Of a DNA stretch of 64,000 bases, positions 280-59,358 are shown piece by piece. The notes beneath the pieces are model-generated. The model had not been told where the DNA came from. It did no database searches and saw nothing but the letters and a program-made list of their open reading frames with translations. The position numbers were made by a program, and so were the translations under genes. Where the stretch lies: the IMG/VR virus record IMGVR_UViG_3300046167_000888; one strand, given 5' to 3'. Source of the stretch: a virus. How positions within the stretch are numbered: the first letter of the stretch is position 1; the number at the start of each line of letters is the position of its first letter.

Positions 280-2072
280 ATGGCAAATACATTATCAAAT
301 ACTGGTATAGTAACCGGACAAACAGTAGAAGCTTTACAAGTTTCTCAATCTGTAGACGCATTTACTGGTGCGAATGACTACGACATTACAATATCTGGTT
401 CATTAACACTTACAGGATCCCTCTTCCAAACTGGATCCGTTTATTTTAAACAAATAGCACAAGTTCCAGCTACCGCAAGTAATAACTTAGGAACTGTAAT
501 GATTGACGTAGATGGTCGATTATATTCTGGTTCATCTTCAGTTGGTACCCAAGGTGCTGCTGGAGTAAAAGGTGAAACTGGTTCACAAGGTGCTGATGGA
601 GTTGATGCAACAGGTACTCAAGGTGCTAATGGTGCTCAAGGTGCTGTAGGATCTACAGGTGCAGGTGGTGCTCAAGGTACAATAGGTGAAAAAGGAAACG
701 AAGGAACACAAGGTAGTGCAGGTACTGTAGGACCAGCTGGAGAAAAAGGTACATTTGGTGAAAAAGGTGAAGCTGGTGCTCAAGGTACTAGTGGTACAAA
801 TGGAGAAAAAGGACAACAAGGAGATGCTGGAACAGCAGGTGCTCAAGGTGAATCAGGTGAAAAAGGTGAAACTGGTTCTGCAGGTGGATTAGGTGCTCAA
901 GGTGCACAAGGTGGTGCTGGAGAAAAAGGAGATAATGGAGCTCAAGGTACTGTAGGTGCAGGAGATAAAGGTCAAAAAGGTGAACAAGGAGATGCTGGTA
1001 ACGCAGGTGCTCAAGGAGCAAATGGTGTAACAGGTTCTCAAGGTACTACTGGAGCAGGAGCTCAAGGTGAAACTGGATTAAAAGGTGAAAAAGGAGAAGC
1101 TGGTGCAGGTGGTGCACAAGGTGAAACTGGAGCAGGAGCTCAAGGAGAAACAGGACAAAAAGGTGAAGCTGGAAGTGGTGGAGCTCAAGGTGCTAATGGT
1201 GCCCAAGGAACAAATGGTGAAAAAGGAGCAATAGGAGAAAAAGGAGAAAATGGAGCAGGTGGTGCACAAGGTGAAACTGGAACAGGTGGTGCTCAAGGAG
1301 CAAATGGTGTAAAAGGTGAACAAGGAGATGCTGGTGGTACAGGTGCTCAAGGTGCTCAAGGTACTACAGGAGTAGGAGAAAAAGGTGGAACAGGAGCACA
1401 AGGAACTGCTGGTACAGGTGGTGGATCAGGTGATGTATATAATCCACAAACAAGATATTTAATTGCTAGTGATGGAGATAATTTCCAATTATATGGAACA
1501 TCTACAAGTAATATGTTCTCAGCAGATTGGACAAGATCAGGAGCAGAATTAACAGTATCACATTCAGCAAATGGTTTAGGTGCTGGTGATAAAGTAGTAG
1601 TTAGAAATTCCAATGTAGATTATCAAGTAACAGATGTTATATCTGCTTCACCAGATGGATTTGTAGTAAATTGTTGCCAACTCGGGTGCCTACATCAGGA
1701 ACAGGATGTCAGTATGGAGCTTTATTTACTGCAGCAGTTACTCAAAATTCAGGTGATGTTACAGCAATAGTAATATCAGCACCAGGAGGAACAAATGGTG
1801 CTTCTCAATTAAATACTTTAAATTTATATGCTAATAACCAAGAAAGTGGTTTAGCAATAACACTACCAGCTGGATTACAAGAAGGTGCCGGTGGGTATAA
1901 TGATAAACAAGATATTAATCTAGTATCATTAGACGCAAAAGTATTTGATGGTACAGGAGTATCAGGAGCATTAACTCCAACAGCAACATATAATTTAGGT
2001 GCTAACTTTAATAGAATAGATGTAAGTAATATTGATAACTTTTCACCAGTTAATTTATCAATGAGGTTTTAA
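280..2072 (+). CDS. Collagen-like fibre protein 1 (apparent frameshifts near 1670-1692)
   Basis: About 290 aa of Gly-X-Y repeats (GAQ/GEK/GET). Removing two single-base insertions joins ORF 280..1770 to ORF 1671..2072 (VVNVANSGATSGTGCQYG...). Confidence 0.8.
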
Positions 2073-2100
2073 TTAAAAAAATTAATTAAAAAAAATAAAA

Positions 2101-3142
2101 TAGGATGCATACCCAACGTTTACAATTTGGAAGGTTAACATATGGATCAGCAGATTTTTTCTCTGATTGAAAATAACCAAAATGGATTTATTCGTATAAA
2201 TGCCGAGATACAACAAGTGGATCTCCTATAATTACAAACGTAGGAGAACAAGCTGGTGGAGCATTTACTACATCGGAACTTATGGTTGGTATGACATTAG
2301 TCTCAAGTGGTGAATTTGCAAGTGAAGTAACAATTATATCTTTAGATTTGGGTAATAACCAACTTACGGTATCCGGCAAATGCAACAGCAACTGCCCAAA
2401 ATCAAGTAATGAGAGTAAGACCCTGCTAAAGGAATGTACTTTTTCGAAAGTGCTTCTTTTAATAAAGTAGGTTCAGGGTGAACCCATCTGATTTAAGAGA
2501 TATTACAGGATCAGAAGATGCTGATTATGATTCAAATGAATTAAAATGGGGTGTAGTTGCAGCCATTAGCTGATACAGGTAGTGTAACAACTACAGTAGC
2601 AGGTTTATATGGTCAATACGAAATTACAGAAATACAAAGTAGAATAAGTAATACAGAAATGAATTTCTTTGCTACAGCAAGTGATTCATTACCTTCATTT
2701 ATAGAAGAATCAGGAAGCCAAGTTAGTGCTGGTTCAAGTGTATTAATGGTATCACAGATATCAAATAACTTAATGACAATAGCAGGTGCTCTGATGTAGG
2801 AGGTGGTGGACAAGGTTTAGCTTTAGGCTGCTTACCAAACAGCAGTATCATCAATATTTTCTACTCTAACATCTGGTTCAGGAGGAGGAGATGCTTTTCC
2901 CATATACAGGTTCAGCTCAAATTACAGGTAGTTTAGGTGTAACAGGTAGTGTAGAAGCATTACTTGCTTCAAATGAAAATTTCTTAATTAAGAACGCTAC
3001 AGCACCAACTCAAAGTTTATTTAAAGTAGATGACGAAGGAGTAGCTGTATTTAGAGCAAGAGAAGGAGCAGATGGTGTACCAAGTGCTGTAGTAGGAGGT
3101 TTATATTTCACTACTTCATCAGCATTTTTAGGAGTAGACTAA
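2101..3142 (+). CDS. Virion structural protein fragmented by multiple indels (probably one gene of about 340 aa)
   Basis: Coding-like fragments in shifting frames (2282-2470, 2557-2799, 2891-3142), ending FPYTGSAQITGSLGVTGS...YFTTSSAFLGVD; start position uncertain. Confidence 0.5.
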
Positions 3143-3242
3143 AATTAGAAAAAATATTACAAATACTAAAATTTAGTATTAAGGTTGCATACGTATAAAT
3201 GATAAAACAGAATATTAAATTAACTTAAAAAACAATTAATCA

Positions 3243-4838
3243 ATGGCAACTTGGAAAAAAGTAATTGTATCCGGATCAGTCGCTGACTTATCAGCATTAT
3301 CCCTAGATACAGCATTGCCCGTAGCCTCGGGTGGTACGGGGGCATCAACCCTTACAGATGGTGGTGTTCTTTTAGGTAGTGGAACTGGAGCAATTACTGC
3401 ACTAGGTCAAGCTACAAACGGTCAATTAGTTATTGGTAGTACAGGAGCAGATCCAGTATTAGCAACTTTAACTGGTGGTTCAAACATTACAGTAACAAAT
3501 TCAGCAGGTGGAATTACTATCGCTGCAACAGGATTAGGTTCAGGTACAGTACAATCTGTAGCAGCATCTGGTAATGAAAATGGTATTACATTATCATCAG
3601 ATGGAGATAGTGTTAACCCAACTATTACATTAGGTGGTGCTTTAGCAAACGTTACAAACTCACAATTATCAAACAGTGCAGTAACATTAGGTAATACATC
3701 AGTATCATTAGGTGCAACAGCTGGAACAGTTGATGGCTTAGTATTAACAGATGTAATAGCAACTGGTTCATTCAGTGGTTCATTCAGTGGTAATGTAATT
3801 ACAAACCTAGAAGATTTAACAGCTGGAAACGGTTTATCAGGTGATGCTTATGATGGTAATGTAGCTAGAACTTTTGCAGTACAAGCAGATGGTTCTACAT
3901 TATCAGTAGGTGGATCAGGTGTTAAAGTAGCAGACGCAGGAATTACAGCAACTCAAATCGCAACTTCAGTAGCAGGTGCTGGTTTAGCAGGTGGTGGAGG
4001 AACAGCATTAAGTGTTAATGTTGATGATTCTTCAATCGAAATTGCTACAGATACTCTAAGAGTAAAATCTCAAGGTATTACAGCTGCAATGATTGCTTCT
4101 GGAAGTATTAACCAGAACCATTTAGCATCTGGAATTGGATTGTTCTCAGGATCAGCTCAAGTAAACTTAGGTGATGCTTCAGGAACAGTAACATTAGGAA
4201 CTCAAACAACAGGTAACTACGTAGCAACACTAGGTAGTGGTACTGGTGTAACAATTGGTTCAAATACTGGTGAAGGTTCAACTCCAACAATTGCAGTAGA
4301 CTATGGTTCAACTGCTAACACGGCGGTTCAAGGTAACGTAGGTTTAACAGTTCAAGGTACTACAAACGAAATTGAAGTATCAGGTGGTGGAATTACACTT
4401 GGTGCTGGTGGTACAGCAACAATTGGTTTACCAAGTAATGTTACTATAACTTCAGACTTAAGTGTAGGACAAGATTTAGTAGTAGCTAGAAACTTAACAG
4501 TTCAAGGTACAGCTTCATTTGCCTCAACAACGGATTTAGATGTAGCGGATAGATTCATCAGAATGGCTTCTGGTTCAACAGCAACTGGAGACGGTGGTAT
4601 TGTTGTACAACAAACAGGACCAGCAGATGGTGAAGCTTTTGCTTATGATTCAGCACAAACTAGATGGGGAGTTACAGGGTCTTACGATCCAGCAACAAAC
4701 TCAATTACTCCAGACGCTTTCATGTCTACAGTAGTAATTGGTTCAGGTGGTGATGCAGCAACAGGTGTTGTTTCTAAATACACAAAAGCAGGTAATATGT
4801 TTGTTTCAGCATCAGGAGATATTTACATTTACTCATAA
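3243..4838 (+). CDS. Tail fibre / fibre-associated structural protein (G/S/T-rich)
   Basis: 531 aa with the LPVASGGTGA fibre motif; N-terminus [12 protein letters not shown] is shared with the collagen fibres. Confidence 0.7.
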   Translation: MATWKKVIVSGSVADLSALSLDTALPVASGGTGASTLTDGGVLLGSGTGAITALGQATNGQLVIGSTGADPVLATLTGGSNITVTNSAGGITIAATGLGSGTVQSVAASGNENGITLSSDGDSVNPTITLGGALANVTNSQLSNSAVTLGNTSVSLGATAGTVDGLVLTDVIATGSFSGSFSGNVITNLEDLTAGNGLSGDAYDGNVARTFAVQADGSTLSVGGSGVKVADAGITATQIATSVAGAGLAGGGGTALSVNVDDSSIEIATDTLRVKSQGITAAMIASGSINQNHLASGIGLFSGSAQVNLGDASGTVTLGTQTTGNYVATLGSGTGVTIGSNTGEGSTPTIAVDYGSTANTAVQGNVGLTVQGTTNEIEVSGGGITLGAGGTATIGLPSNVTITSDLSVGQDLVVARNLTVQGTASFASTTDLDVADRFIRMASGSTATGDGGIVVQQTGPADGEAFAYDSAQTRWGVTGSYDPATNSITPDAFMSTVVIGSGGDAATGVVSKYTKAGNMFVSASGDIYIYS

Positions 4839-4851
4839 TAAATGAGTGTAA

Positions 4852-5079
4852 ATGAGTTTCAAAAGTGGTGAAATAATTATTAAAGGTAAAAAAACTACCT
4901 CTATAAATAAAGATGAAATGGCAGACTCTGAACAGGGTCTGCCATCTTTATCAAAAGAAGAAATAATGTTTCTTCTAAAAATAATTCAACAACATGATTT
5001 TAAAGGTAGAGATATAGAAATTCTTTACAATACAACGTTGAATCTTCAAAAACAGTACATACATTTAAGTAATCAATAA
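4852..5079 (+). CDS. Small hypothetical protein (possible fibre assembly chaperone)
   Basis: 75-aa ORF between fibre genes. Confidence 0.5.
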   Translation: MSFKSGEIIIKGKKTTSINKDEMADSEQGLPSLSKEEIMFLLKIIQQHDFKGRDIEILYNTTLNLQKQYIHLSNQ

Positions 5080-5088
5080 TATTTAAAT

Positions 5089-16714: not shown

Positions 16715-17257
16715 ATGGGTTTACTAATAACAGGGTCTTTTAAAGACATGAACGAAGCAACATATGATAGCTTATATTGTAGAATTGACCATTATCAACT
16801 AATAAAATCATTAGGATATGTGGCTACTACAATTGGATATTATGTTTCTAAAGAAGCATCCGAACCGATGTTTCCTACATATCAAGAAGATTATCATGAC
16901 TCAGACGCTAGTGGTTTTGTAGCAGGTGTAATTAATACTTCAACTGAAACTGAATTTGCAGCTGATCATTATATTGAATTTCCGTTAACACAAAGTGAAC
17001 AAGTTGTAGTAACTACATATTCATCTTCTTTTGAAGATAGATTAGTTGATTATATTGATTATGATGATGACGGAAATGAAGTCACAAAACAAAGAAATCA
17101 AAAAATTGAAATTATTACAACGGGTAGTGAAGAAGTTACTAAATCTAGAATTAATATGGATTTAATAACAGGAAGCGCTTATGAATATGCCTATAATCAG
17201 TTAAAATCTCGTTTAATAGAAACATACGGTGACAATAATGTTAATGATTTAATATAA
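16715..17257 (+). CDS. Hypothetical fibre-associated protein
   Basis: 180 aa directly after fibre 3; three TGS motifs. Confidence 0.5.
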   Translation: MGLLITGSFKDMNEATYDSLYCRIDHYQLIKSLGYVATTIGYYVSKEASEPMFPTYQEDYHDSDASGFVAGVINTSTETEFAADHYIEFPLTQSEQVVVTTYSSSFEDRLVDYIDYDDDGNEVTKQRNQKIEIITTGSEEVTKSRINMDLITGSAYEYAYNQLKSRLIETYGDNNVNDLI

Positions 17258-17264: not shown

Positions 17265-18083
17265 ATGTATTTTGGATCTTTTGGAAATAATAATTTAAAA
17301 TTAAGAGGAAACAATTCAGGTACTTTAATGCCTTGTGATTGTCAAGGATTTTTTAACAATGCCTTTGTTGCTTGTTTTTCTTGGCCATATTGGAACAATA
17401 CTAACATTAATCAAGGATGTAGTAGTTGGACAGCTTATTTATTACCTTGTGTAGGTAATGCAATAGTAAATGTAGGAACAGCGCCATCATCAACTAATGC
17501 TCAATCTTCTCGTGTACGAAATCAAGATAGACCTTTTGGAATTAATTTACATGGTGTAACAAATGCTGAAAAAGTTTCATTTACAAATTGGAACCCTATA
17601 ACCACTGTTGGTACTCTTCAAGGATATCAAAATGTAGGATTATCTAATAGATCTAATTTTGTTGGTATTAATGTTATTATGACTTATGGGTATACTTTTG
17701 GAGGTTGGAGAGCAAATACCGCTTCGGGTGGTTTAATTACTTTGTCTCAAGCTACTAATTTATATACCACAGGTACTTATGGAAGTACTGATTTTAGAGA
17801 TTTAAATGATGTATTTTCATCAGTTTTCTCTGATAGAAGATTAAAAGAAAATATTAGATGTATAGGTAAATCAAAATCAGGAATTAACATTTATACTTGG
17901 AACTATAAAAATCCAGAAAAATTTGGATATGGTACATACCAAGGAGTAATGGCTCAAGAAGTACCTCATGCTACAGTACAACATCCTAATGGATATTTAG
18001 CAGTAAATTATTCTAAAACAGACGTTACATTTAAAAAGTTATATGAAAGCAATTTGGGTAATAGAAAACGTCAAGAAGGATAA
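17265..18083 (+). CDS. Structural protein with C-terminal S74-like chaperone domain
   Basis: FSDRRLKENI...GINIYTWNY...QGVMAQEV...GYLAVNY. Confidence 0.7.
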   Translation: MYFGSFGNNNLKLRGNNSGTLMPCDCQGFFNNAFVACFSWPYWNNTNINQGCSSWTAYLLPCVGNAIVNVGTAPSSTNAQSSRVRNQDRPFGINLHGVTNAEKVSFTNWNPITTVGTLQGYQNVGLSNRSNFVGINVIMTYGYTFGGWRANTASGGLITLSQATNLYTTGTYGSTDFRDLNDVFSSVFSDRRLKENIRCIGKSKSGINIYTWNYKNPEKFGYGTYQGVMAQEVPHATVQHPNGYLAVNYSKTDVTFKKLYESNLGNRKRQEG

Positions 18084-18921
18084 TTCCTTTTATGATGAAT
18101 TTAAATTAGTTATGTTATTTGCTTCCGTAAGTTTATGGAAGAAATATCATCCTGAACATACTACAATTCTATATTGTGATGAAATGACAGAAAAATATCT
18201 GTCTAATCTTAATGTATTTCCATTATGGGATCAAATTAAACATTTATCTTATCCTGAAAAAATTAATCGAGAAATATTTTGGTCAAGTTGTAAAACAAAA
18301 ATTATAAGTGAAGCAACGGAACCTATAGTAGTTATAGATCATGATTTTTTAATATTCACTAATATAGATGAACATTTAAAAGAAAAAGTATTATATACTC
18401 ATGAAGAACAAGCTTATCCTTGGTACCCAGCTAAAGAAGATAGGTATTGTGCTCGTTTATCTAAACCTTCCCCTTATGAATTAGATTTAGCAGCTAATGT
18501 ATCATTATTTTATTTACCTGATCCTAAATTTGCTAAAATGTATGGTGAATGGGTGTTACAAAATCACGAAGAATTTACTATAATGGATTTTGAAGGTATG
18601 GATCCTAATTATATGATTTATTCAGAACAACTAATGTTAAAACAACTATTAGTTAGGGATAATATCCCACATAATACGTTAACAATCAACGTATTTGACA
18701 ATAAAAAACAAATATTTACTGATGCAATTAATTTATATGGTATTTGGAATCGTGAAGAATCTCCATTACATTATAGACACTATGGGTTTGATAAACGTCT
18801 TTTACAAGATGATAAAGACGAATTATCTTATTTATATAGATGTATAAATGCAAGTAAAAAAATTAACGTTAAGTTATTAAAAGAAAAAATTCATGAAAGC
18901 AATTCACGTAAATTGGACTAA
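18043..18921 (+). CDS. Putative GT-A fold glycosyltransferase-like protein
   Basis: ILYCDE, FWSSCK and PIVVIDHD (DxD) motifs; paralogous to the next gene. Confidence 0.5.
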   Translation: MKAIWVIENVKKDNSFYDEFKLVMLFASVSLWKKYHPEHTTILYCDEMTEKYLSNLNVFPLWDQIKHLSYPEKINREIFWSSCKTKIISEATEPIVVIDHDFLIFTNIDEHLKEKVLYTHEEQAYPWYPAKEDRYCARLSKPSPYELDLAANVSLFYLPDPKFAKMYGEWVLQNHEEFTIMDFEGMDPNYMIYSEQLMLKQLLVRDNIPHNTLTINVFDNKKQIFTDAINLYGIWNREESPLHYRHYGFDKRLLQDDKDELSYLYRCINASKKINVKLLKEKIHESNSRKLD

Positions 18922-19882
18922 ACCTTTCTTTAATAGAGATAGGTTAAGAGGTCATGGATTTGAATCTACAAAACAATTAAAATCTAACACATACGATCAA
19001 CTTGACCATCAAATATTATACACAATGCTATCAGCAGTGTATTGGAAAAAATATAATGGCCCAATTAAATTGTATACTGATTCAGTTGGTGCTTCATTTT
19101 ATCAAAGATTTGGTTTATTAGATTTATATGATGAAATAGATATAAAATATTTAAATAATTACTCTAAATCAGACATAGATGCTGCTTATTTTTGGACTAG
19201 TGGTAAAATAAAATGTTTAGCCCATCAAACTGAACCTTTTGTTTTTTTAGATCAAGATATGATTGTTAAACAACCACTACCTGAATGGGTAAGAACAAAT
19301 GATTTAACAATTGCTCATTGGGAAATAGGTAGAGGTTATTATTATTTTGATAGAGAAAAATGGGAAAGAGAAATTACTCATATACCATGGATTGAAAATT
19401 ACAACTCAGATGATTGGTCACCTAATACATCATTTCTGTGTTTTAATAACATGGAATTACTTAAAGAATATCATAATTGGCATAAGTATTTAGTAAAAAC
19501 AGAACCATATTATAATATACCAGAATGGTATTGGTTATTAACAGACCAAGGTATTTTAGGTCATATTATTAGAGAAAACGATTATAATATAAATACGTTA
19601 ACTCAAAAAATATCATTATCACATCATAATACAATTGATACAGCAACTAGATATAAAGGTAAAGCTGAAAAATGGTATAATGTAGTTGACCCAGATTATG
19701 ATGAAATAAATGATGAACCAAAAGAAGTTAGATTTGAGCATGTTTGGTTAGATAAAATTAATATTCAAAATTTACAAACAGATAGATGGTTTAAAGAATT
19801 AGTTGAAGATTTTGATTGTAGTAAATATCTTACAGATATAAGATGGAATAAACATTGGAAAAATTACCATGAAAATAATTAG
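18893..19882 (+). CDS. Putative GT-A fold glycosyltransferase-like protein
   Basis: KLYTD, FWTSGKI, PFVFLDQD (DxD) and TDQGIL motifs; MKAI- start like its upstream paralog. Confidence 0.55.
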   Translation: MKAIHVNWTKPFFNRDRLRGHGFESTKQLKSNTYDQLDHQILYTMLSAVYWKKYNGPIKLYTDSVGASFYQRFGLLDLYDEIDIKYLNNYSKSDIDAAYFWTSGKIKCLAHQTEPFVFLDQDMIVKQPLPEWVRTNDLTIAHWEIGRGYYYFDREKWEREITHIPWIENYNSDDWSPNTSFLCFNNMELLKEYHNWHKYLVKTEPYYNIPEWYWLLTDQGILGHIIRENDYNINTLTQKISLSHHNTIDTATRYKGKAEKWYNVVDPDYDEINDEPKEVRFEHVWLDKINIQNLQTDRWFKELVEDFDCSKYLTDIRWNKHWKNYHENN

Positions 19883-20615
19883 AGTACTTTGGGGTAATAA
19901 TATAAACCATGAGATACCTCCATGTCCATTATTGGAAAATGAAGTTGTTTATGTATGGGGGGATGAAAACAATCAAATGATGATTGATAGAGGATGGGAA
20001 ACTAGACCTTATAATACTAATTTTATATTTGAAGGTAAATATAATGCATTTGGTAAAAAATTACTTGCATTAAAAGAAGCAATGGAAGAATTTGGTGAGG
20101 TATTATTACTAGATTGGGATTGTTATTTAATAAAACCTTTAGATGAAAAATTTTATAACACGTTAAAAACTAAACCGGTACAAATTCCTCTTTACATTCA
20201 ACATAAAGATACTAAAGATGCTATATTAGAAATTTTACCGCCAAACCAAAGTATTGAATTACAAAAAGAATTAGATATATTAGGAAAAGGATTTAAAAAA
20301 TATGGTTGGGAATGGGAAGATGGATATGTAGCTCCTAATTTTGGTTTTGTATATTGTAGAGATAAAGATTTTGCTCAAAAATTATATGATATAGCAATTA
20401 ATCATAATTTACAAACTGTAGTAGATGAGTTTGCTACATTAATACAGGTTGATTGTACATTAGAAGAATATATAGAAAAATATTTACCTACTGTATTAAG
20501 AGGTTCTAGCAATGATAAATTTATTTTTGATGCTAGATTACATAAATTAGGAAAAAAATTCAATGATTACATTGATACTATAACAAAAATAACACCTTAT
20601 TTTAATCATGTCTAA
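19869..20615 (+). CDS. Putative glycosyltransferase-like protein (paralog A)
   Basis: EVLLLDWDCYL (DxD), PNFGFVY, C-terminal YFNHV. Confidence 0.5.
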   Translation: MKIIRVLWGNNINHEIPPCPLLENEVVYVWGDENNQMMIDRGWETRPYNTNFIFEGKYNAFGKKLLALKEAMEEFGEVLLLDWDCYLIKPLDEKFYNTLKTKPVQIPLYIQHKDTKDAILEILPPNQSIELQKELDILGKGFKKYGWEWEDGYVAPNFGFVYCRDKDFAQKLYDIAINHNLQTVVDEFATLIQVDCTLEEYIEKYLPTVLRGSSNDKFIFDARLHKLGKKFNDYIDTITKITPYFNHV

Positions 20616-21396
20616 ATTAAAATTTATAAGAACTTGGTGGGGGGACCAACAAGATAAATGGTTAGAAGTCCCCAAAATACCTTTAATATCATCTGAAGAT
20701 GAAATTGTATATGTTTGGGGTAAGGAAAATTTAAATAAATTTAAAGAAAGAGGATACAATTGTGTCTTAATGAAAGAAGATGAATTTAGTGGAAAAAGTA
20801 TTTATGGAAAAAAATTAACCGTTTTAAATAAAGCATTAAAAGAATGGGGTGAAGTATTAATGTTAGATTGGGATTGTTATTTATCATCACCTCTAGATGA
20901 TAATTTTTATACAATGTTATCTAAAAAACCTATACAAATACCATTATATGCTCATCATAAAGAACCTGATGTAGCATTATTAGAAGCAATTCCAGATGAC
21001 CATCCAATTCTTCAATCAGAAAAAACATATATTGAGTTAATAACTAATTTAGAATCAATAGCATTAGAAATTCCTAAATATCATTGGGAATGGAATGAAA
21101 ATTTAATTATTCCTAATTTTGGTTGTGTTTATTCTAGAGATATAAATTTAGGAGAAGATTTAATTAAAATAGCTAAAGAAAATAATATAAAAGGATTAGT
21201 AGAAGAATTTGCAATGTGGAAATACGCTAATTGTACATTAGAAGAATACATTGAACATTACCATCCTGATTATGTATTAGGCGTATCAGATGATAGATTA
21301 AAAGACCAAGAATATAGTATTAGTATAATACAAAAAGAATTTAATAAAGAAATAAAAACTAAAATTAATTTAAAACAATATTTTAATCATGTATAA
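20608..21396 (+). CDS. Putative glycosyltransferase-like protein (paralog B)
   Basis: EVLMLDWDCYL, PNFGCVY, C-terminal YFNHV; tandem paralog of 19869..20615. Confidence 0.5.
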   Translation: MSKLKFIRTWWGDQQDKWLEVPKIPLISSEDEIVYVWGKENLNKFKERGYNCVLMKEDEFSGKSIYGKKLTVLNKALKEWGEVLMLDWDCYLSSPLDDNFYTMLSKKPIQIPLYAHHKEPDVALLEAIPDDHPILQSEKTYIELITNLESIALEIPKYHWEWNENLIIPNFGCVYSRDINLGEDLIKIAKENNIKGLVEEFAMWKYANCTLEEYIEHYHPDYVLGVSDDRLKDQEYSISIIQKEFNKEIKTKINLKQYFNHV

Positions 21397-21982
21397 AGTA
21401 AAAGTAATATCACTTAAAAGACGTGAAGATAGACGTGCTCATATGGCTCATATGTTTCAACATATAAATTTTGAATTTGTTGACGCTTTAGATGGGCAAA
21501 CATATAATTTAACAGAATTTGATAAAGAATTTATTGAAGGTAATGATTATGAAAAACATGGAATACACATCCCATCTTTAGTTTGTGCTAATTATACACA
21601 TTTAAATTTGTTAGATGAATGTTCAAAACAAGATCAACCTTATTTTATATTTGAAGATGATGTTGAAATGACTGGAGCTAAAGCTCCTGATTTATATTTT
21701 GAAGCATTAGCTTCAGTTGAAGATTTAGATGCTTTTTGGTTTATTCCTAATGAACCAAGTATTGCCGCTTATATAGTATGGCCAAAGGGTGCTAAAAAAA
21801 TGATTGATTATGTAAATAATGTTTCTAAATTAAAAAGAGGTTTAGATTGGGCATTTTGGGATTTAAGAAAATCTAAAGATTTCCGTGCGGATCAATCAAA
21901 AGAAGCGTATTTTAAACATGACCCTGGAAAAGACTCTGATATCACAACAATAGAAAACTATGATATTTCATCCGACAAATAA
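21389..21982 (+). CDS. Glycosyltransferase family 25
   Basis: VISLKRREDRR, FEFVDALDG, YFIFEDD and AAYIV..GAKK motifs typical of GT25. Confidence 0.8.
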   Translation: MYKVKVISLKRREDRRAHMAHMFQHINFEFVDALDGQTYNLTEFDKEFIEGNDYEKHGIHIPSLVCANYTHLNLLDECSKQDQPYFIFEDDVEMTGAKAPDLYFEALASVEDLDAFWFIPNEPSIAAYIVWPKGAKKMIDYVNNVSKLKRGLDWAFWDLRKSKDFRADQSKEAYFKHDPGKDSDITTIENYDISSDK

Positions 21983-22664
21983 GGAAAATATATTTCATTT
22001 AGCTCCTATACCAGTTTATAAAAGGAGATATGTAGATTGTCCTGTTACTAAAAAAATAAATAAACTTGGGTTTAAAATTTTAACTCAAGAACAAAAAAGA
22101 ATGGGTCAAGAATTACCTGGTCAATATGATAAACATAGACAAGATAATTATGAAATTAATTATGATTATCAAGAAGAATGGGTTGAAGATCATGAATTAC
22201 AACCTATAGGAAGTAGATTTTTTGTTGAACCTAATAACTTTTTAACTGAATGGGGATACAAACCAGAAAAAAACACAGGTAATAAAGATGTAGATGTTAT
22301 TACTCGAAGAATAAAAGCGGGTTTTAAAGAACTAACAGGTAAAGATGGAGAAGTAACTGAAAGTTGGGCTCAATATTATGAACCAACTGCAGGTAGAGGA
22401 CATAATGCTCATAATCATAATAGATGGCAACATAAAGAAGAAAAACCTTTAATGTACTCTGGTGGTTATTATTTAGATGATGGTGATCCTTTAAAAGATC
22501 ATCCTTACAGTGGTGCTTTTGCTTTTCATATAGGAGGAAAAAAACATTATATTAGACCTAGAGAAGGGATGTTATTAATTTGGCCACATGATATTATTCA
22601 CTCAGTAGAACCATTTTATGGTAATAGACATAGAGCAGTAATTAATTTTAATATACAAGCATGA
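21960..22664 (+). CDS. 2OG-Fe(II) oxygenase (HxH type)
   Basis: ESWAQ, HNAHNH, SGGYY, PREGMLLIWPHDIIHSVEP, RAVINFN. Confidence 0.75.
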   Translation: MIFHPTNKENIFHLAPIPVYKRRYVDCPVTKKINKLGFKILTQEQKRMGQELPGQYDKHRQDNYEINYDYQEEWVEDHELQPIGSRFFVEPNNFLTEWGYKPEKNTGNKDVDVITRRIKAGFKELTGKDGEVTESWAQYYEPTAGRGHNAHNHNRWQHKEEKPLMYSGGYYLDDGDPLKDHPYSGAFAFHIGGKKHYIRPREGMLLIWPHDIIHSVEPFYGNRHRAVINFNIQA

Positions 22665-23509
22665 ATATAATTTTTGATATACCTGGTGGAATAGGTAAAG
22701 TATTAATGGCAACTGCTATTGTAAAAGGACTTAAAGCCAAATACCCCACAGATAAAATAATTACAGTTTCAGGTCATCCTTTAGTATTTAAAAATAACCC
22801 TAATGTTCATGCTTCATTTCAATTAGCGGATAGAGATAGAGTTAGGGAACAATATATAAAAGACCAAGAATGTAAAATTATAGCTAGAGAACCTTATTAT
22901 GAGCAAAATCATATTTTTCAAAAGGAACATTTACTAGAAACATGGTTTAAATTATTAGATTTAGAATATTGGGGACAACAACCAGATATTTATTTAGATG
23001 ATCAAGAAATACAATCATATAAAAAATTATATAAATCAGATAAACCTATAATGGTTATCCAACCTCATGGGGGTGCTTCACCCGAAGTACCTTATAACTG
23101 GGTAAGAGATATTCCACCTAAAATAACTAAAAAATTAATAGAAAAGTATAAAGATACTCATACTATCTATTTAATAAAAAGCCCAAAACAACCTAAATAT
23201 AAAGATGTAAAAGAAGAAATAGGATCTATTAGAAGAGTAGCTATACTATTAAGTATGGCTGAAAAAAGATATCTTATTGATAGTTTTGCTCAACATTTAG
23301 CAATGGCTTTAAGAAAACCATCTACCGTATTTTGGATAGGAACTAATCCAAAGGTATTTGGGTATGATATACATAATAACATTAAAGCAAACCCATTCCA
23401 ATTAGAAACAAATAGTGGGTTGTATCATGGAAGAAATTTAACAGAAGTCATAGAAAGCTTGCCTTATGTAAATGAGGATTGTATATTCGATGTCGAAAAA
23501 ATTATATAA
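22661..23509 (+). CDS. GT-B fold glycosyltransferase (GT9/heptosyltransferase-like)
   Basis: GGIGKVLMATAIV, FKNNPNV, VIQPHGG, LIDSFAQHLAMAL..PSTVFW. Confidence 0.7.
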   Translation: MNIIFDIPGGIGKVLMATAIVKGLKAKYPTDKIITVSGHPLVFKNNPNVHASFQLADRDRVREQYIKDQECKIIAREPYYEQNHIFQKEHLLETWFKLLDLEYWGQQPDIYLDDQEIQSYKKLYKSDKPIMVIQPHGGASPEVPYNWVRDIPPKITKKLIEKYKDTHTIYLIKSPKQPKYKDVKEEIGSIRRVAILLSMAEKRYLIDSFAQHLAMALRKPSTVFWIGTNPKVFGYDIHNNIKANPFQLETNSGLYHGRNLTEVIESLPYVNEDCIFDVEKII

Positions 23510-23511
23510 CT

Positions 23512-24109
23512 ATGTTTCAAAGCTATGCATTTGATCAACAAGAAGTTGATTTACAAAATTACTACTATATTCTTAATGGATTTAGTAAAGAAGAATTAAA
23601 TAGAATAGAACAAGATGTTTCTACTTTACCTTTTCAACAAGCAAGTACTGTTGGAGGTGATAGTAAAAAAGTAAGATCATCTAAAGTAAAATGGGTACCT
23701 CATAATAATGATTGGTTTTGGTTATATGAAAAACTATCTGATTATGCTGTAGAAGCTAATTTTGCATTATGGAATTTTGACTTAACATTAATCCCAGAAC
23801 AAATACAATACACTGAATATTATGCTTCAGAACAAGGACATTATGATTGGCACGCTGATATAGGTCCAGGTTTATTATCTAAAAGAAAAGTATCTATTAC
23901 AGTTCAATTATCTGAACCCTGATGAATATGAAGGAGGAGATTTAGAATTATTCCAAGGTGGAAGTATGAGTGGTCCTTTTCCTAAAGCAGAAAGAAGAGC
24001 AGGTTGTGTGTTTATTTTCCCCTCGTTTATGATGCATAGAGTAGCCCCAGTTACAAAAGGTGTAAGAAAATCATTTGTAATATGGTTAGGTGGTCAACAT
24101 TATAAATAA
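23512..24109 (+). CDS. 2OG-Fe(II) oxygenase, prolyl-4-hydroxylase/PKHD type (apparent +1 insertion near 23918)
   Basis: HYDWHAD and RKVSITVQLSEP; after removing one C it continues DEYEGGDLELF...FIFPSFMMHRVAPVTKGVRKSFVIWLGG. Confidence 0.85.
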
Positions 24110-24112
24110 TGT

Positions 24113-25150
24113 ATGTTAAACAATTTATCTAAATTTGTAATTAATAATGGAGGAAGTATTACCCCATTATTATTATCCGAAGAGCAAGGTAGAGGTATGG
24201 GTCTTTGTAATGTTTCTATTTACTTAGATGATAACGGTGATATACTTGCTAATATTAGGAATGTACATTATATTCTATATCATGATGAATTTGGACAAAA
24301 TTTCCATTGTAGATGGGGTACATTATCTTATTTAAATCCTGAAGATGATATTAAATTAAGAACAAAAAACTATTTTTGTAAATTAGATCCTAATACTTTA
24401 GAAGTTATTTCATCTACAGAAATTGATACATCAAAACATGATATAAAACCAGTTTGGACTTTTATTGGATTAGAAGATGTTAGGTTAGTTAGATGGGAAG
24501 GTCAATTATACTATTGTGGTGTAAGACGAGATACTAAAACTAATGGAGAAGGTAGAATGGAATTATGTAAACTAGATGTTAGACCAGATGGAGTTTATGA
24601 AACAACTAGAGAAAGAGTTGAAGTAAACCCACATACACATTTAGAAAAAAATTGGATGCCTATTTTAGATATGCCTTTCCATTATGTTAGATGGTGTAAC
24701 CCGTTAGAAATAATTAAAGTTAATCCTGAAGATAAATCAAAACATAAGGCACAAGAAGGTATGTTAGATATAATATCAAGTGAGGTAGTATTTAAAAGTG
24801 ATCAAGAAATAAGTCTACCTTTAGGAGTAAGGGGTGGTTCACAAGTAATACCTTTTGGTAATGATGGAGATAGAATATGCATAACTCATGATACACATTT
24901 TTACCATCATCAAAATGAAAAAAAAGATGCTCAATATTATCACAGGTTTATAATATGGGATAAAGATTGGAAAGTTAAAAGAATATCAGAGCAATTTAAG
25001 TTTATGGATGCTATGATTGAGTTTGCTTGTGGTTTAATTATAAAAGATGGTAATTTAATTATGACTTATGGTTATCAGGATAATGCCGCTTATGCATTAA
25101 AAATGCCTTTAAATTTATTAGATGAATTAAAATGGGATATTGATGAGTAA
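24113..25150 (+). CDS. Five-bladed beta-propeller glycoside-hydrolase-like protein (GH130/GH43-like)
   Basis: GLEDVRL, EKNWMP, RGGSQ, IEFACGL, TYGYQD motifs. Confidence 0.6.
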   Translation: MLNNLSKFVINNGGSITPLLLSEEQGRGMGLCNVSIYLDDNGDILANIRNVHYILYHDEFGQNFHCRWGTLSYLNPEDDIKLRTKNYFCKLDPNTLEVISSTEIDTSKHDIKPVWTFIGLEDVRLVRWEGQLYYCGVRRDTKTNGEGRMELCKLDVRPDGVYETTRERVEVNPHTHLEKNWMPILDMPFHYVRWCNPLEIIKVNPEDKSKHKAQEGMLDIISSEVVFKSDQEISLPLGVRGGSQVIPFGNDGDRICITHDTHFYHHQNEKKDAQYYHRFIIWDKDWKVKRISEQFKFMDAMIEFACGLIIKDGNLIMTYGYQDNAAYALKMPLNLLDELKWDIDE

Positions 25151-52811: not shown

Positions 52812-54470
52812 ATGAGCTTAAATTCACTATTAGAAAGTGCTAACACTTACCAAAACATGCAGTCAGATGCAGCAAGGTTAGCAGGAAAATGGGAAAAAAC
52901 AGGTCTTTTAGAAGGTTTAGATGGTGCACACAAATCAAACATGGGTATTATCTTAGAAAACCAAGCTAAACAACTTGTAGTTGAGTCTTCACAAACTGGT
53001 GGAGGTGCTGCTTCAAGTGGTACTTTTAGTTCACAAACACAGGTTAACATCGGTGGTCAGTGGGCAGGAGTTGCTTTACCTTTGGTAAGAAAAGTATTTG
53101 GTCAAATCGCAGCAAAAGAATTTGTTAGCGTTCAACCAATGAACTTACCTTCAGGTCTAGTATTTTTCTTAGACTTCCAATACGGAAGCGACAAATCACC
53201 ATTCTCAAGTGGTTCTTCTTTATACGGTAACAGTATAGGTGGAAACAACTTCGGGAACGACAGCGAAGGTGGTTTATACGGATCAGGTAGATTCGGATAT
53301 TCAATTAACAACACACAGTCTATTTATTCTACATCATCTGCTGTAGCTACTGCTACTTTAGCTGATATGGATTATGACTCTGCTTATTCTTCAAGTTCAG
53401 GATTCCCTACATTTGATAAAGTAAGTGTACCAGTAGCATCACTAGACTTCTTAGATAAAGAAGGTGTTAATGCTTTCCAATTCGGTACAGGATCTTTAGA
53501 TTTTATCGCGAATTCACTTGTTGGTAACCAATTGTCTCAATTCACTAAGTGGGATGAAGATGCACAAGTTGTTAACTTTATCGTAAGTAAATCATTTGGT
53601 GTAGCAGTTGATGATACAAACACTGTTTGTTACCAACTACAACCAACTGATAGATACAGAGGTGATTTTGAAGATGGAAACCCAGAGCCAAACAGCTTGA
53701 ACTCTCCATCAATCTCAATCCCAGAAATCAACGTACAGATGAAATCATCTGCTATCGTTGCTAAAACTAGAAAATTGAAAGCTGTATGGACGCCAGAATT
53801 CGCACAGGATTTAAATGCATACCATGCATTAGATGCTGAAGCGGAATTGACTTCTATCTTAAGTGAGTACATTTCACTAGAAATTGATTTAGAGATCTTA
53901 GATATGTTGATCAGTGGCGCTGCTGCTGGAAACGAAGTATGGTCAGCTGAAAACAACGTTAGTGTTACTAGCGCTGCAGGTGCTCAGAAAAACTTAGGAT
54001 TCTACAACTCTCAAGGACAGTGGTTCCAAACATTAGGAACTAAAATCCAAAAATTAAGTAACATCATTCACCAGAAGACTTTAAGAGGTGGAGCAAACTT
54101 CCTAGTATGTTCTCCTTCTGTAGGTACTATCCTAGAATCTATTCCAGGATTTGCTGCTGATACTGATGGCGATGCTGCAAAAGCAACTTATGCATTTGGT
54201 GTTCAGAAAGTTGGTTCATTAAACGGAAGATATAAAGTTTACAAGAACCCTTACATGAAATCTAACGTAATGTTGTTAGGATTCAGAGGATCTCAATTCT
54301 TGGAAACTGGTGCTGTATTTGCTCCATATATTCCATTAATCATGACTCCACTAGTATACGATCCAAATACCTTTACACCAAGAAAAGGTCTATTGACTCG
54401 TTACGCTAAGAAGATGGTTAGACCAGAATTCTACGGAACAATTGATATCGCAGGTTTAAACACTCTATAA
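52812..54470 (+). CDS. Major capsid protein (T4 gp23-like)
   Basis: KWEKTGLLEG, ENQAK, VSVQPMNLPSGLVF, AKTRKLKAVWTPEFAQDLNAYH, APYIPL, TRYA. Confidence 0.95.
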   Translation: MSLNSLLESANTYQNMQSDAARLAGKWEKTGLLEGLDGAHKSNMGIILENQAKQLVVESSQTGGGAASSGTFSSQTQVNIGGQWAGVALPLVRKVFGQIAAKEFVSVQPMNLPSGLVFFLDFQYGSDKSPFSSGSSLYGNSIGGNNFGNDSEGGLYGSGRFGYSINNTQSIYSTSSAVATATLADMDYDSAYSSSSGFPTFDKVSVPVASLDFLDKEGVNAFQFGTGSLDFIANSLVGNQLSQFTKWDEDAQVVNFIVSKSFGVAVDDTNTVCYQLQPTDRYRGDFEDGNPEPNSLNSPSISIPEINVQMKSSAIVAKTRKLKAVWTPEFAQDLNAYHALDAEAELTSILSEYISLEIDLEILDMLISGAAAGNEVWSAENNVSVTSAAGAQKNLGFYNSQGQWFQTLGTKIQKLSNIIHQKTLRGGANFLVCSPSVGTILESIPGFAADTDGDAAKATYAFGVQKVGSLNGRYKVYKNPYMKSNVMLLGFRGSQFLETGAVFAPYIPLIMTPLVYDPNTFTPRKGLLTRYAKKMVRPEFYGTIDIAGLNTL

Positions 54471-54555: not shown

Positions 54556-55737
54556 ATGAACATACCAATTTATGATGGTTGCCCTAAATGGGTAGATAGT
54601 GCGGTACCATTCGGTTTTTATAATTCGGATAATGAGTTTACAACCGACGCAGTAAAAGTAGCTAAATTTTGTGCTGCTAGATTAGGTTATCCTTTAGTAG
54701 ATATCGAATTACAATCTGGATCATTTTTTACTGCTTTTGAAGAGGCTGTGACAACGTATGGTAACGAATTATACGCGTATAAAATACGAGATAATCAATT
54801 GTCACTCGAGGGATTAACCACTGGGTCAAGCTTAAATCAAGCGCTTATAACACCGAGTTTTGAACCAATAGTTAGATTAACTGAACAATATGGTGAAGAA
54901 GCAGGCAGTGGAGGTAATGTGCCTTATTATTCAGGATCATTCCATTTAACATCAAGCCAACAAGATTATTCATTTCAAACTTTTATGACCCAAAGTGGTT
55001 ATACTGGTTCTGAATATCAACATGGAATTGAAGTTAAAAGAGTATTTTATCAAGAACCTTACCCAGCATCCTCACGTTATTTAGATCCTTATAATGGATT
55101 TGGATTTGGTGGTGTATTAGCTGCTGGAGTAGCAGGTATAGGTGGATTTGGAGATGGTTTAGGATATTTAATGGCCCCTTTAAATTATGATTTACAGGTA
55201 ATACAACAAATAGAAATGAATCAAATGATTAGAATGAATAACTATTCATTTGAAATCAGAGCAGATAAATTAAGAATATTCCCTATTCCAAACTTTAATA
55301 ATATTCCTTCTGGGTCAACAGGACCTCAAATATGGTTTGAATATATTTTAAGAGAAGAAAGAATAAATACATCTGTTAGTCAAGAACGAGATAAAGTTAC
55401 AAATGTATCAAATGCTCCATATGAAAACCCAACATACGAATTTATTAATTCAGTAGGTAGACAATGGATATTTGAGTATACACTAGCATTAGCAAAAGAA
55501 ATGTTAGGTTACGTAAGAGGTAAATATAGTACTATACCTATTCCTAACGCAGATGTAACACTTAATCAATCAGATTTAATAGCAGCAGCTACAGCTGAAA
55601 AAACTGCTTTAATAGAAAGATTAAGAACATATTTTGATGAAACATCTAGAATGGCTTCTTTAGAAAGAAGAGCAAATGAAGCAGATTCTAAAATGAAGGA
55701 ATTACAACAAGTCCCTTGGACTATTTTTATAGGATAA
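54556..55737 (+). CDS. Neck/head-tail adaptor protein (T4 gp13-like)
   Basis: RLGYPLVDIEL, WIFEYTLALAKEMLGYVRGKY, VTLN; position after the capsid gene. Confidence 0.7.
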   Translation: MNIPIYDGCPKWVDSAVPFGFYNSDNEFTTDAVKVAKFCAARLGYPLVDIELQSGSFFTAFEEAVTTYGNELYAYKIRDNQLSLEGLTTGSSLNQALITPSFEPIVRLTEQYGEEAGSGGNVPYYSGSFHLTSSQQDYSFQTFMTQSGYTGSEYQHGIEVKRVFYQEPYPASSRYLDPYNGFGFGGVLAAGVAGIGGFGDGLGYLMAPLNYDLQVIQQIEMNQMIRMNNYSFEIRADKLRIFPIPNFNNIPSGSTGPQIWFEYILREERINTSVSQERDKVTNVSNAPYENPTYEFINSVGRQWIFEYTLALAKEMLGYVRGKYSTIPIPNADVTLNQSDLIAAATAEKTALIERLRTYFDETSRMASLERRANEADSKMKELQQVPWTIFIG

Positions 55738-55738
55738 T

Positions 55739-57216: not shown

Positions 57217-57281
57217 AAATATTTACAATAAATGTATTTTTCTAATTACTTATATATATTTATAATAAACATTTACAAATT

Positions 57282-57536
57282 ATGAAATTAGTGAAAAAGT
57301 TATCAAAAGAAGAAGTTGCAACTTTAACAGAATATCAATTAGAAACCAATAAATTAGTTGGTTCAATAGGACAAATTGAATTACAACTAGATTTATTAAA
57401 AGAGAATAAAGCAAAAATATTAAGCGATTTCAAAATACTATCAGAAAAACAACAAAAAACTGCTAAAGAAATGCAGGAAAAGTATGGTGATGGTAATCTT
57501 GATTTAGAAAAAGAGGAATTTATACCACTAAAATAG
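57282..57536 (+). CDS. Small coiled-coil protein
   Basis: GQIELQ...EKYGDGNLDLE; own late motif at 57256. Confidence 0.6.
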   Translation: MKLVKKLSKEEVATLTEYQLETNKLVGSIGQIELQLDLLKENKAKILSDFKILSEKQQKTAKEMQEKYGDGNLDLEKEEFIPLK

Positions 57537-57594
57537 TTTTTTGAGGTAATTCTTAATATTTATAATAAAATAAACAATTATAATAACATAAGCA

Positions 57595-59358
57595 ATGGCA
57601 GAAACATTAATATCTCCAGGTGTATTAGCAAGAGAAAATGATCAGTCGTTTATTGGTGCAAGACCAGTTACGTTTGGCGCTGCAATAATTGGAGCAGCAG
57701 TTAAAGGACCAGTCAATATCCCAACAGCGGTATCTACATTTTCACAATATGAAGCTATTTTTGGTGGAGCAGTAGAAAGCGGTTCCCAATACTACACTTA
57801 TTTAAACTCAATAGCAGCAAGAAATTACTTTGCAAATGGTGGTGAATCATTATTAGTAACAAGAGTCGTTACAGGTTCATTTACTTCAGCATTTACTTCA
57901 GGTAGTGCCGCAGGACCAAATCAAAGTGGTATTATGGCTAATGCTTGGCAAGACAACGCAGCTACTCAGTATCAAAAACAATCTTTTGTATTAAAAACTA
58001 TTTCTGAAGGGGAACTTATGAACAGTTTCAGCCCAGTAACAGCTAATGGTTCTCTACCAAGTGGATCAGCTGATAACTTAAGATGGGAAATAGCTACAAC
58101 AAATACATCATCTGGACAATTTTCATTACTAATTAGAAGAGGTAATGATATTAACAACCAAAAAGCAATATTAGAGACTTACAATAATCTTTCAATGGAT
58201 CCAACAGCACCTAACTATATAGGTAAAGTAATTGGAGACACATACTTTACAGTAGAAAGTGATGGACCAGATTATTATGTAAAAACAAATGGTAATTACC
58301 CACGTAGAAGTGCTTATGTTTATGTAGAAAGCGTTGGTACACCAACACCTCAATATTTCAATAATGATGGTTCAGTAAAACCACAATTTACAGGAAGTTT
58401 ACCATTAGTAGGATCAGGTTCATTTGCAGCCGCTACAGGTAAAAATATTGAAAACAATGATGCTAAATTTAATGAAAATATCACTGCAGCAAACATTCAA
58501 GGAATTGCACCAGCAGGATATACTCAAACAATTGCATTATTAAATAATAAAGATGATTATCAATTTAATGTAATATCTGCTCCTGGATTAAATGGAGTTG
58601 ATCATGGTATTCAAGTTAATTCTTTAGTAGCATTAGCTCAAAACAGAACAGATTGCCTTGCAGTAATTGATTTAATAGGATATAATTCATCAGTTAACCA
58701 AGTAACAACACAAGCTTCTTCATATGACACTTCATATGCCGCTGCTTACTGGCCATGGTTACAAACGATCGACGCGGTTACTGGACAAACAGTTTGGGCG
58801 CCAGCTTCAACGTATATCCCCGCAGTATATGCATTTACAGACGCATCAGCTGACCCATGGTTCGCACCAGCAGGTTTAGTTAGAGGTGCTTTAGGAAGTG
58901 TAGTAAGAGCAGAAAGAAAATTAACATCAGGAAACAGAGATACTTTATATGAAGCAAATGTTAACCCAATAGCTACATTCCCAGGAAGTGGAGTTGTAGT
59001 ATTTGGACAGAAAACATTACAGAAAAGAGCAAGTGCTTTAGATAGAGTAAATGTACGTAGATTATTAATAGCACTAAAATCTTATATTGTACAAGTATCA
59101 GATGGTTTAGTATTTGAACAAAATACAAACTCAACAAGAAATAACTTCTTGGCACAAGTTAACCCATACTTAGAATCAGTACAACAAAGACAAGGATTAT
59201 ACGCGTTTAAAGTAGTAATGGATGCTTCCAATAATACACCAGACGTAATCGATAGAAATGAGCTAGTAGGCCAAATTTACTTACAACCAACTAAAACAGC
59301 GGAATTTGTAATTCTAGATTTCAACGTTTTACCAACTGGAGCAACATTTCCTGAATAA
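57595..59358 (+). CDS. Contractile tail sheath protein (T4 gp18-like)
   Basis: ISPGVLAREND, YWPW, WFAPAG, GQKTL, DRVNVRRLL, FEQN, PTKTAEFV. Confidence 0.95.
   Translation: MAETLISPGVLARENDQSFIGARPVTFGAAIIGAAVKGPVNIPTAVSTFSQYEAIFGGAVESGSQYYTYLNSIAARNYFANGGESLLVTRVVTGSFTSAFTSGSAAGPNQSGIMANAWQDNAATQYQKQSFVLKTISEGELMNSFSPVTANGSLPSGSADNLRWEIATTNTSSGQFSLLIRRGNDINNQKAILETYNNLSMDPTAPNYIGKVIGDTYFTVESDGPDYYVKTNGNYPRRSAYVYVESVGTPTPQYFNNDGSVKPQFTGSLPLVGSGSFAAATGKNIENNDAKFNENITAANIQGIAPAGYTQTIALLNNKDDYQFNVISAPGLNGVDHGIQVNSLVALAQNRTDCLAVIDLIGYNSSVNQVTTQASSYDTSYAAAYWPWLQTIDAVTGQTVWAPASTYIPAVYAFTDASADPWFAPAGLVRGALGSVVRAERKLTSGNRDTLYEANVNPIATFPGSGVVVFGQKTLQKRASALDRVNVRRLLIALKSYIVQVSDGLVFEQNTNSTRNNFLAQVNPYLESVQQRQGLYAFKVVMDASNNTPDVIDRNELVGQIYLQPTKTAEFVILDFNVLPTGATFPE

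Follow-up and report, generated by a model that had tools for sequence, protein, structure and literature searches.

In the present study, we analysed a recurrent tripeptide, Ser/Thr-Gly-Ser (hereafter [ST]GS), in the proteins encoded by the phage DNA of IMG/VR record IMGVR_UViG_3300046167_000888 (64,000 nucleotides; this whole stretch is referred to as the window). Among the proteins of this marine phage and of its relatives, those that face outward (capsid, neck, sheath and fibres) carry the motif at about 3-4 times its chance frequency. As judged from the sequences, the bias is specific to one clade of T4-like aquatic myoviruses, to which Flavobacterium phage vB_FspM_immuto (hereafter immuto), Microcystis phage Mel-JY01 and many metagenomic relatives belong. 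The explanation that we put forward, tentatively and at somewhat less than an even chance, is that the motif may be a glycosylation sequon written by a glycosyltransferase island that is conserved in the clade and lies outside the window. The preliminary description of this DNA had proposed a sequon for phage-encoded glycosyltransferases. This proposal is partly supported: enrichment, peripheral restriction, occurrence in unrelated folds and clade specificity speak for it, but the glycosyltransferase cluster that was named as the writer does not.

Enrichment in outward-facing virion proteins

Because the motif had been picked post hoc in the preliminary description, all 8000 tripeptides were ranked against per-protein composition with collagen runs masked, and SGS (25 versus 7.5 expected) and TGS (22 versus 7.1) took ranks 1 and 2. 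In the pooled virion-region proteins, also with collagen masked, [ST]GS was found 46 times versus 11.9 in shuffles (0/2000), and the capsid, neck and sheath proteins together gave 13 versus 1.92 (0/20000 shuffles), which confirms the enrichment over composition-matched shuffles. The per-protein test used 20000 composition-matched shuffles with Bonferroni correction for 73 proteins, and five proteins passed it, namely the sheath, the neck protein and the open reading frames (ORFs) starting at 280, 2891 and 16715. The excess is about twice that predicted from the SG and GS dipeptide biases. AGS, NGS, VGS, SGT and TGT are not above expectation in the window, and [ST]xS with other middle residues is at or near expectation.

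The strings and per-protein counts quoted in the preliminary description were all found in the sequence (ORF 280, 7; ORF 2891, 3; ORF 3243, 7; ORF 16715, 3; neck, 5; sheath, 6; capsid, 2). The near-absence that it had seen elsewhere also stands, with 0 sites in each of terminase, portal, primase, tube, tape measure and the glycosyltransferase cluster, and none in any ORF from 17265 to 41876. Restriction of the motif to peripheral virion proteins is borne out by the absence of sites from portal, scaffold, protease, tube and tape measure in the window, and the folds that carry it (gp23-like capsid, gp13-like neck, gp18-like sheath and fibres) are unrelated, as had been noted.

All long ORFs of the window lie on the + strand, and the G+C content is about 30-42%. 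The terminase, portal, gp23-like capsid protein, gp13-like neck protein, sheath and tube were identified by PHROGs and Pfam, and the left third of the window holds five collagen-like fibre proteins, two non-collagen fibre-like proteins and small ORFs. The closest isolate is immuto (160 kb), with protein identities of 52-61% for terminase, portal, capsid and sheath.

The tail sheath (gp18-like, 587 amino acids (aa); 57595..59358, + strand) was assigned by phrog_23 (E 1e-74), by Pfam Phage_sheath_1 and by Foldseek matches to solved sheaths, which confirm its fold. It has [ST]GS at residues 62, 93, 102, 156, 266 and 274, that is, 6 versus 0.64 expected (p ~5e-5), and four of the six are positionally common with immuto. 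The variable N-terminal 290 residues hold 6/6 of these sites and the conserved inner C-terminal domain none; by this distribution in the sheath, the earlier claim that the sites face outward is supported indirectly. In the neck protein (T4 gp13-like, 393 aa; 54556..55737, + strand; phrog_211 and PF26809 Phage_T4_gp13), the motif is found at residues 54, 89, 126, 150 and 252 (5 versus 0.34 expected, p ~5e-5). The immuto homologue has 0 sites, and so none of these five is in common. The major capsid protein (gp23-like, 552 aa; 52812..54470, + strand; phrog_138 E 5e-68 and PF07068 Gp23) carries the motif at residues 133 and 226 in its variable middle region, a count (2 versus 0.96 expected) that is not significant alone; site 226 is [ST]GS in 36/43 relatives.

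Among the fibre-region genes, the collagen-like fibre of 496 aa at 280..1770 (+ strand; Pfam Collagen E 1e-29) has seven [ST]GS versus 1.29 expected (p 3e-4), of which four are left after collagen masking. Three of its sites make up an N-terminal repeat with a unit of six residues (SGSLTL TGSLFQ TGSVYF), and three others fall within Gly-X-Y repeats. The small ORF at 2891-3142 (83 aa, + strand), which is without a Pfam or PHROG match, opens with the same six-residue TGS repeat and has 3 sites versus 0.17 expected (p 5e-4). The 180-aa ORF between fibre genes at 16715..17257 (+ strand), without a family match, has three TGS versus 0.16 expected (p 5e-4), and its homologue in a relative (locus L092) has 2 sites. 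The non-collagen fibre or virion structural protein of 531 aa at 3243..4838 (+ strand; phrog_16122 virion structural protein), 48% identical to an immuto 'virion structural protein', has seven versus 2.55 expected.

Chance, a composition effect, a word at the DNA level or shared ancestry of repeats could produce such counts in principle, and some fibre sites are in fact homologous copies. An N-terminus of the form ..(K/R)x(I/V)I(V/I)SGS is common to three fibres, so that not all fibre sites are independent, and counts of x-G-x words are inflated by collagen Gly-X-Y repeats. Against such an origin, neither collagen masking nor per-protein shuffling nor correction for 8000 tripeptides removes the enrichment, and the three non-fibre proteins alone give 13 versus 1.9. 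The feature is one of the proteins: the 9-mers in the DNA are diverse, codon use is ordinary and the same aligned sites use both Ser codon classes (TCN and AGY). We regard an artefact of this kind as barely credible. Four particular explanations were tried and rejected. A DNA-level word is ruled out by the many different 9-mers and the codon evidence, a collagen artefact by the masking of Gly-X-Y runs, and a locally S/G/T-rich composition by SGT, TGT, AGS, NGS and VGS being at expectation in the window. Avoidance of deamidation-prone Asn-Gly is rejected as well, since a mild depletion of NG is also seen in the control phages and the dipeptide biases are alike.

Clade distribution and candidate glycosyltransferases

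The structural regions of six unrelated control phages showed no enrichment. These were T4, Prochlorococcus phage P-RSM4, Bacillus phage SP-15, Pseudoalteromonas phage XG4, LR756508 and AG-345-O18, and they include one 484-kb uncultured phage and one marine single-cell virus; in T4, TGS was found 0 times versus 5.7 expected and SGS 5 versus 6.4. In immuto, SGS has rank 1, GSF rank 2 and TGS rank 4, and in Mel-JY01, TGS occurs 19 times versus 5.7. The metagenomic relatives bear separate labels, G001 to G009. In G006, a complete 174-kb IMG/VR genome, SGS was found 90 times versus 27.7 (rank 2) and TGS has rank 6, and in the 90-115-kb fragments G007, G008 and G009, SGS has ranks 15, 4 and 2. Further relatives were represented by 80 IMG/VR stretches around the neck gene (48-95% identity). 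In these loci, the neck protein has 1-8 sites, the sheath 4-8 and the capsid protein 1-3; the portal, scaffold, protease, the two proteins after the neck and the tube have none, and the tape measure has 0-1. The inner hub proteins just beyond the end of the window are at expectation. A universal turn preference would not account for a bias that only this clade shows, and shows across unrelated folds.

A host-linked (Bacteroidota) explanation was considered and is weakened, as Mel-JY01, a Microcystis phage, shows the bias and the Bacteroidota sequon D-[S/T]-[A/I/L/V/M/T] is not enriched (30 versus 34.3 in shuffles). The residue preceding the motif is mostly hydrophobic, not Asp as in that sequon. 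General O-glycosylation in Bacteroidota acts after export, and virions assemble in the cytoplasm.

In the preliminary description, the writer of the motif was taken to be a cluster at 18043..25784 (+ strand, annotated by Pfam, 0 [ST]GS). Within this cluster, only a GT25 glycosyltransferase gene (21389-21982; E 1e-16, 61.5 bits versus a cut-off of 24) passes the Pfam cut-off as a glycosyltransferase. Its neighbours, all on the + strand, are a 2OG-Fe(II) oxygenase-like ORF (21960-22664) which falls just below the threshold (26.8 bits versus a cut-off of 27, E 7e-6), a DUF6734 ORF assigned by Pfam (18893-19882), a weak GT-B-like ORF with sub-threshold hints (22661-23509) and a weak Pfam TPR match (25140-25784); the other ORFs of the cluster drew no assignment. 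The cassette stands directly downstream of collagen-like fibres in the window, where five collagen-like genes with GEKGE-type repeats (Lys in the Y position) precede it, and the GT25 gene is placed likewise in G002 (~1-16.5 kb), where the collagen-like genes are large. The same gene order is found in G005 (L092 1720-10056), the contig of which has just a collagen trace at its start. In G003 and G004, collagen is present and GT25 was not found in their incomplete fragments.

Glycosylation of collagen hydroxylysine by GT25 together with a hydroxylase is known from animals (GLT25D1/COLGALT1) and from mimivirus L230 (PMC9614988). The likeness lies in a GT25 transferase that adjoins a candidate 2OG-Fe(II) oxygenase in the neighbourhood of Gly-X-Y proteins; the phage differs in that its genes are separate and not fused and its oxygenase match is just below the cut-off. 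Because GT25 and a putative hydroxylase next to Gly-X-Lys repeats recall this known pairing, maturation of the fibres is the better reading of the cassette, and by this analogy it is probably engaged in the hydroxylation and glycosylation of the collagen-like fibres and not in writing the motif.

That the cluster itself recognises [ST]GS seems to us very improbable. It does adjoin motif-rich fibre genes, and the neck proteins of the three cluster-bearing genomes (the window, G002 and G005) have 5-6 sites each, with 0-1 where the cluster was not found (immuto, G001, G003 and G004). However, this neck correlation tracks phylogeny and rests on seven genomes, the cluster has a single Pfam-supported glycosyltransferase ORF, and both here and in G002 it lies beside collagen-like fibres. 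The sheath has 4-7 sites in every relative, and immuto, which has neither a homologue of the cassette nor collagen fibres, retains the enrichment genome-wide. The expectation that relatives lacking the cluster should lack the enrichment therefore fails for the cluster of the window, as immuto without it has SGS at rank 1 and TGS at rank 4.

A better candidate for the writer, from gene content, is an island outside the window. In immuto, Mel-JY01, G003 and G004, in which the core was searched, a syntenic core was found that consists of a GT4 glycosyltransferase (476-484 aa), a second GT-B/GT4 protein (424-455 aa), an ORF of 145-155 aa and a GT2 glycosyltransferase (207-226 aa), with 37-57% identity. 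What follows the core differs from phage to phage and is made up of further transferases and nucleotide-sugar enzymes. The second GT-B of the core is encoded on more than 413 IMG/VR contigs; G006-G009 had themselves been retrieved via their GT4 homologue. The core is absent from five complete control phage genomes that were searched. The FkbM methyltransferase (PF05050) did not prove to be a shared marker of the clade, as it had no matches in five relatives.

The window was linked outward by exact-protein look-ups along overlapping ENA contigs. Its last 4.7 kb are 99.8% identical to an ENA contig, which in turn is 99.5% identical over 3.1 kb to an ENA contig of 168,095 bp (ENA ERZ23492830 scaffold_4; L214 11495-19967, L220 2885-11357). 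On this 168-kb contig, the core lies at about 40.8-49.1 kb, with 52-63% identity to immuto gp182-178 and the order kept, and 3' of it are three GT2 genes, a nucleoside diphosphate (NDP)-sugar epimerase/dehydratase and a sugar dehydrogenase. The Pfam matches of the island on this contig include no flippase, polymerase or transporter (ABC) family. The contig is taken to be a close strain and not an identical genome, because the exact sheath sequence of the window is not on record there. The core is thus present in the own population of this phage. In PDB searches, the best solved relative of both GT4s is the chlorovirus glycosyltransferase B736L (E 2.5e-8 and 4.7e-5).

Three further features of the 168-kb contig were recorded at L210 15871-16473 and at L212 12501-15399 and 17347-20804. 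One is a second small GT25. Another is a pair of 2OG-Fe(II) oxygenases that lie within a QueC/PTPS/radical-SAM/GTP-cyclohydrolase (7-deazaguanine) cluster. The third is a family B DNA polymerase gene, after which come DUF6165 and a GT32-FkbM fusion. A cohesin/T9SS protein is encoded on this contig as well.

Glycosylation sequon or structural element

In the mechanism that we propose, a short linear motif, hydrophobic-[Ser/Thr]-Gly-Ser-hydrophobic, would be under selection on exposed parts of virion proteins, where it would accept an O-linked glycan while these proteins, folded or still assembling, are in the host cytoplasm. The island core outside the window (GT4, second GT-B, 145-155-aa ORF and GT2) would attach the glycan, and the phage-specific transferases and nucleotide-sugar enzymes downstream of it would vary the glycan. 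The GT25/oxygenase cassette of the window would instead hydroxylate and glycosylate the adjacent collagen-like fibres. We infer that the Ser/Thr of the motif is modified, that the modification is a glycan and that the island writes it. In its widest form, to which we give a chance not far below even, the proposal holds that phages of the clade bear O-linked glycan over the entire exterior of the virion (capsid, neck, sheath, baseplate periphery and fibres), attached at hydrophobic-[S/T]-G-S-hydrophobic, the conserved core writing it and strain-specific genes diversifying it. A conserved island without export genes and with a variable tail is how a surface glycan under diversifying selection would be expected to look.

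Several observations weigh against a glycosylation sequon. The depletion of the motif in non-virion proteins is weak and not robust (suggestive over three related genomes, with 13 versus 28.4, and just 5 versus 7.3 in 50 kb of the own population), and T4 as a whole has similarly low [ST]GS. Island and motif are linked within a single clade, so that their association is effectively one evolutionary event and is confounded by common descent. Phage glycosyltransferase islands can target DNA or the host envelope instead (PMC7029224). The anatomy of the sites also tells against modification. Hydrophobic residues make up about 50-58% at position -1 and 41-59% after the Ser, with a background of 31%, and such flanks fit a strand-turn-strand or strand-edge element. 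The fibre motifs are in phase with repeats of 4-6 residues (e.g. SGSLTL-TGSLFQ-TGSVYF). The motif Ser/Thr is no more conserved than other Ser/Thr of the same proteins (0.74 versus 0.67, p 0.25), and conservation of the motif Gly is not above that of other Gly in the same proteins. An impression of special conservation of the motif hydroxyls had come from raw column counts and was lost on comparison with other Ser/Thr.

A purely structural and unmodified motif is a real possibility, although we hold it to be clearly less than an even chance. It would be a tight turn or a strand-edge element of beta-rich outer domains and fibre repeats, inherited and spread by domain accretion, with the small residue inward, the hydroxyls outward and hydrophobic flanks on both sides. 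The in-phase six-residue repeats in fibre N-termini agree with it, and so does the finding that conservation of the motif residues does not exceed that of adjacent ones. At some aligned sites, as in sheath columns 332 and 410, the Gly does not vary and is preceded by either S or N, the pattern of ordinary turns. AlphaFold models of low confidence (pLDDT, the predicted local distance difference test, 59 and 56), from which only secondary-structure context was read, would place sheath site 62 in a two-residue hairpin and sheath 274 and neck 126 within strands. The modelled contexts as a whole are mixed, with a two-residue hairpin, strands, a helix N-terminus and loops, and this mixture and the enrichment across unrelated folds argue against a structural role. 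Furthermore, turn preferences are universal, but the homologous proteins of T4, cyanophage and Bacillus phage lack the enrichment, and the SG, GS and NG dipeptide biases are alike in the controls and in this phage. At about half of the aligned sites, Gly is exchanged for Ser, Ala or Gln and the flanking hydroxyls stay, which is unlike a Gly-dependent turn. Sites turn over and counts persist, the neck having 0 in immuto versus 5-6 here, and new sites arrive with lineage-specific insertions in neck and sheath.

The same statistics would also be produced by a functional motif that is not glycosylated, such as a site of phosphorylation or acylation or a weak binding or assembly patch, in which the TGS repeats at the fibre N-termini would dock on neck, sheath and capsid. 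The repeats are in tandem at these N-termini, and collar fibres attach at the neck in T4. However, no protein kinase or acyltransferase was found among the window ORFs scanned against Pfam, the sole kinase-like match being a zeta-toxin/AAA_33 P-loop protein, and no result here points specifically to docking. We consider a function of this kind unlikely.

To our knowledge, virion glycosylation in tailed phages has so far been established only for some mycobacteriophages. In a 2023 study in Cell Host Microbe, Freeman et al. reportedly found that cytoplasmic glycosyltransferases encoded by mycobacteriophages O-glycosylate outward-facing virion proteins, at sites that are said to be concentrated in Ser/Thr-rich extensions at the C-termini of capsid and tail-tube proteins, with the transferases beside the structural genes. 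The study is cited in PMC12801897 and PMC11256854. The present phages resemble these mycobacteriophages, in gene content, in having phage-encoded glycosyltransferases without export families among the Pfam matches of the island (GT4, GT-B, four GT2, epimerase/dehydratase and sugar dehydrogenase). They differ in that the candidate acceptor, a three-residue word, is dispersed over many proteins and that the candidate island lies among non-structural genes, far from the structural module. Acceptors in C-terminal tails of the mycobacteriophage type were not found, as the tube has 0 sites here and in 48 relatives and the capsid sites are internal (133 and 226).

Among other cytoplasmic systems, the autotransporter heptosyltransferases (Aah/AIDA-I and TibC/TibA) and flagellin O-glycosylation act on Ser/Thr of beta-rich or exposed regions, with hydrophobic residues near the acceptor and no strict sequon; their enzyme families are different, GT9-like heptosyltransferases and Maf/GT-A. 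GtfA/GtfB, which modify serine-rich-repeat (SRR) adhesins, are an adjacent cytoplasmic GT-B pair, one clearly GT4 and one degenerate, with acceptors of S-x-S type. The phage core has an adjacent GT-B pair too; neither phage GT4 matched GtfA or GtfB in the PDB searches (E up to 1), and SRR-like S[AVET]S is not enriched (16 versus 17.5). N-x-S/T, the word of N-glycosylation, is likewise not enriched on virion proteins (86 versus 92.0 in shuffles). Chloroviruses glycosylate their own major capsid protein (Vp54) with virus-encoded soluble transferases at the short non-canonical sequons NTGT, NTET and NTAT (PMC9614988), the difference being that the glycans are N-linked to Asn there. The likeness of the phage GT4s to B736L is modest and limited to the GT-B fold region.

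If glycosylation by the island is true, phages would have their first virion glycosylation system defined by a sequon, and the sequence by itself could suffice to predict glycosylation sites in a clade that abounds in marine and freshwater metagenomes. The glycan islands of these phages, large and export-less, would gain a target, and phage surfaces would carry strain-variable glycans like bacterial O-antigens, with consequences for adsorption, decay, grazing and host defence. If the structural explanation is right, the motif amounts to a habit of sequence that is peculiar to this clade, and its interest is modest. Direct testing is possible, since a cultured member of the clade exists (immuto on Flavobacterium sp. 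LMO8).

Other fibre genes and features of relatives

The remaining motif-bearing genes of the left third, all on the + strand, are a small ORF of 80 aa with 2 sites and no Pfam or PHROG match (2557-2799), collagen-like fibres with 4 sites (5298-8426) and 5 sites (12261-14591), both assigned by Pfam Collagen, a fibre with an S74 chaperone domain and 5 sites (8248-10371; Pfam Peptidase_S74), and further fibre genes with 3 sites (10364-11629) and 1 site (14533-15252). Read from its first GTG, ORF 8248-10371 has 179 bases in common with ORF 5298-8426, and its true start is probably further downstream. The fibre gene 280-1770 ends in a junk-like tail (..CCQLGCLHQEQ..), and the ORF at 1671-2072 in another frame encodes a sensible C-terminal domain; from the sequence, this indicates a frameshift near 1670, be it real, programmed or a sequencing error.

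The neck protein has forms of 393 aa and 498 aa (the latter in L048 10001-11497 and similar loci), and the insertion of about 100 aa in the 498-aa form brings two SGS plus several TSS/SSS variants. In G006 (IMG/VR 3300028025_000091; loci L176 and L177), there are tandem sheath paralogues at 63552-65315 and 65371-67080, which are 56% and 51% identical to the sheath of the window and carry 5-6 [ST]GS each. Fibre or spike proteins of relatives (immuto 97658-100819 and the fibre genes of G006 and G008) are dominated by ASY/TASY and SHAEG repeats, and ASY, HAE and SHA are among the top tripeptides in those three phages.

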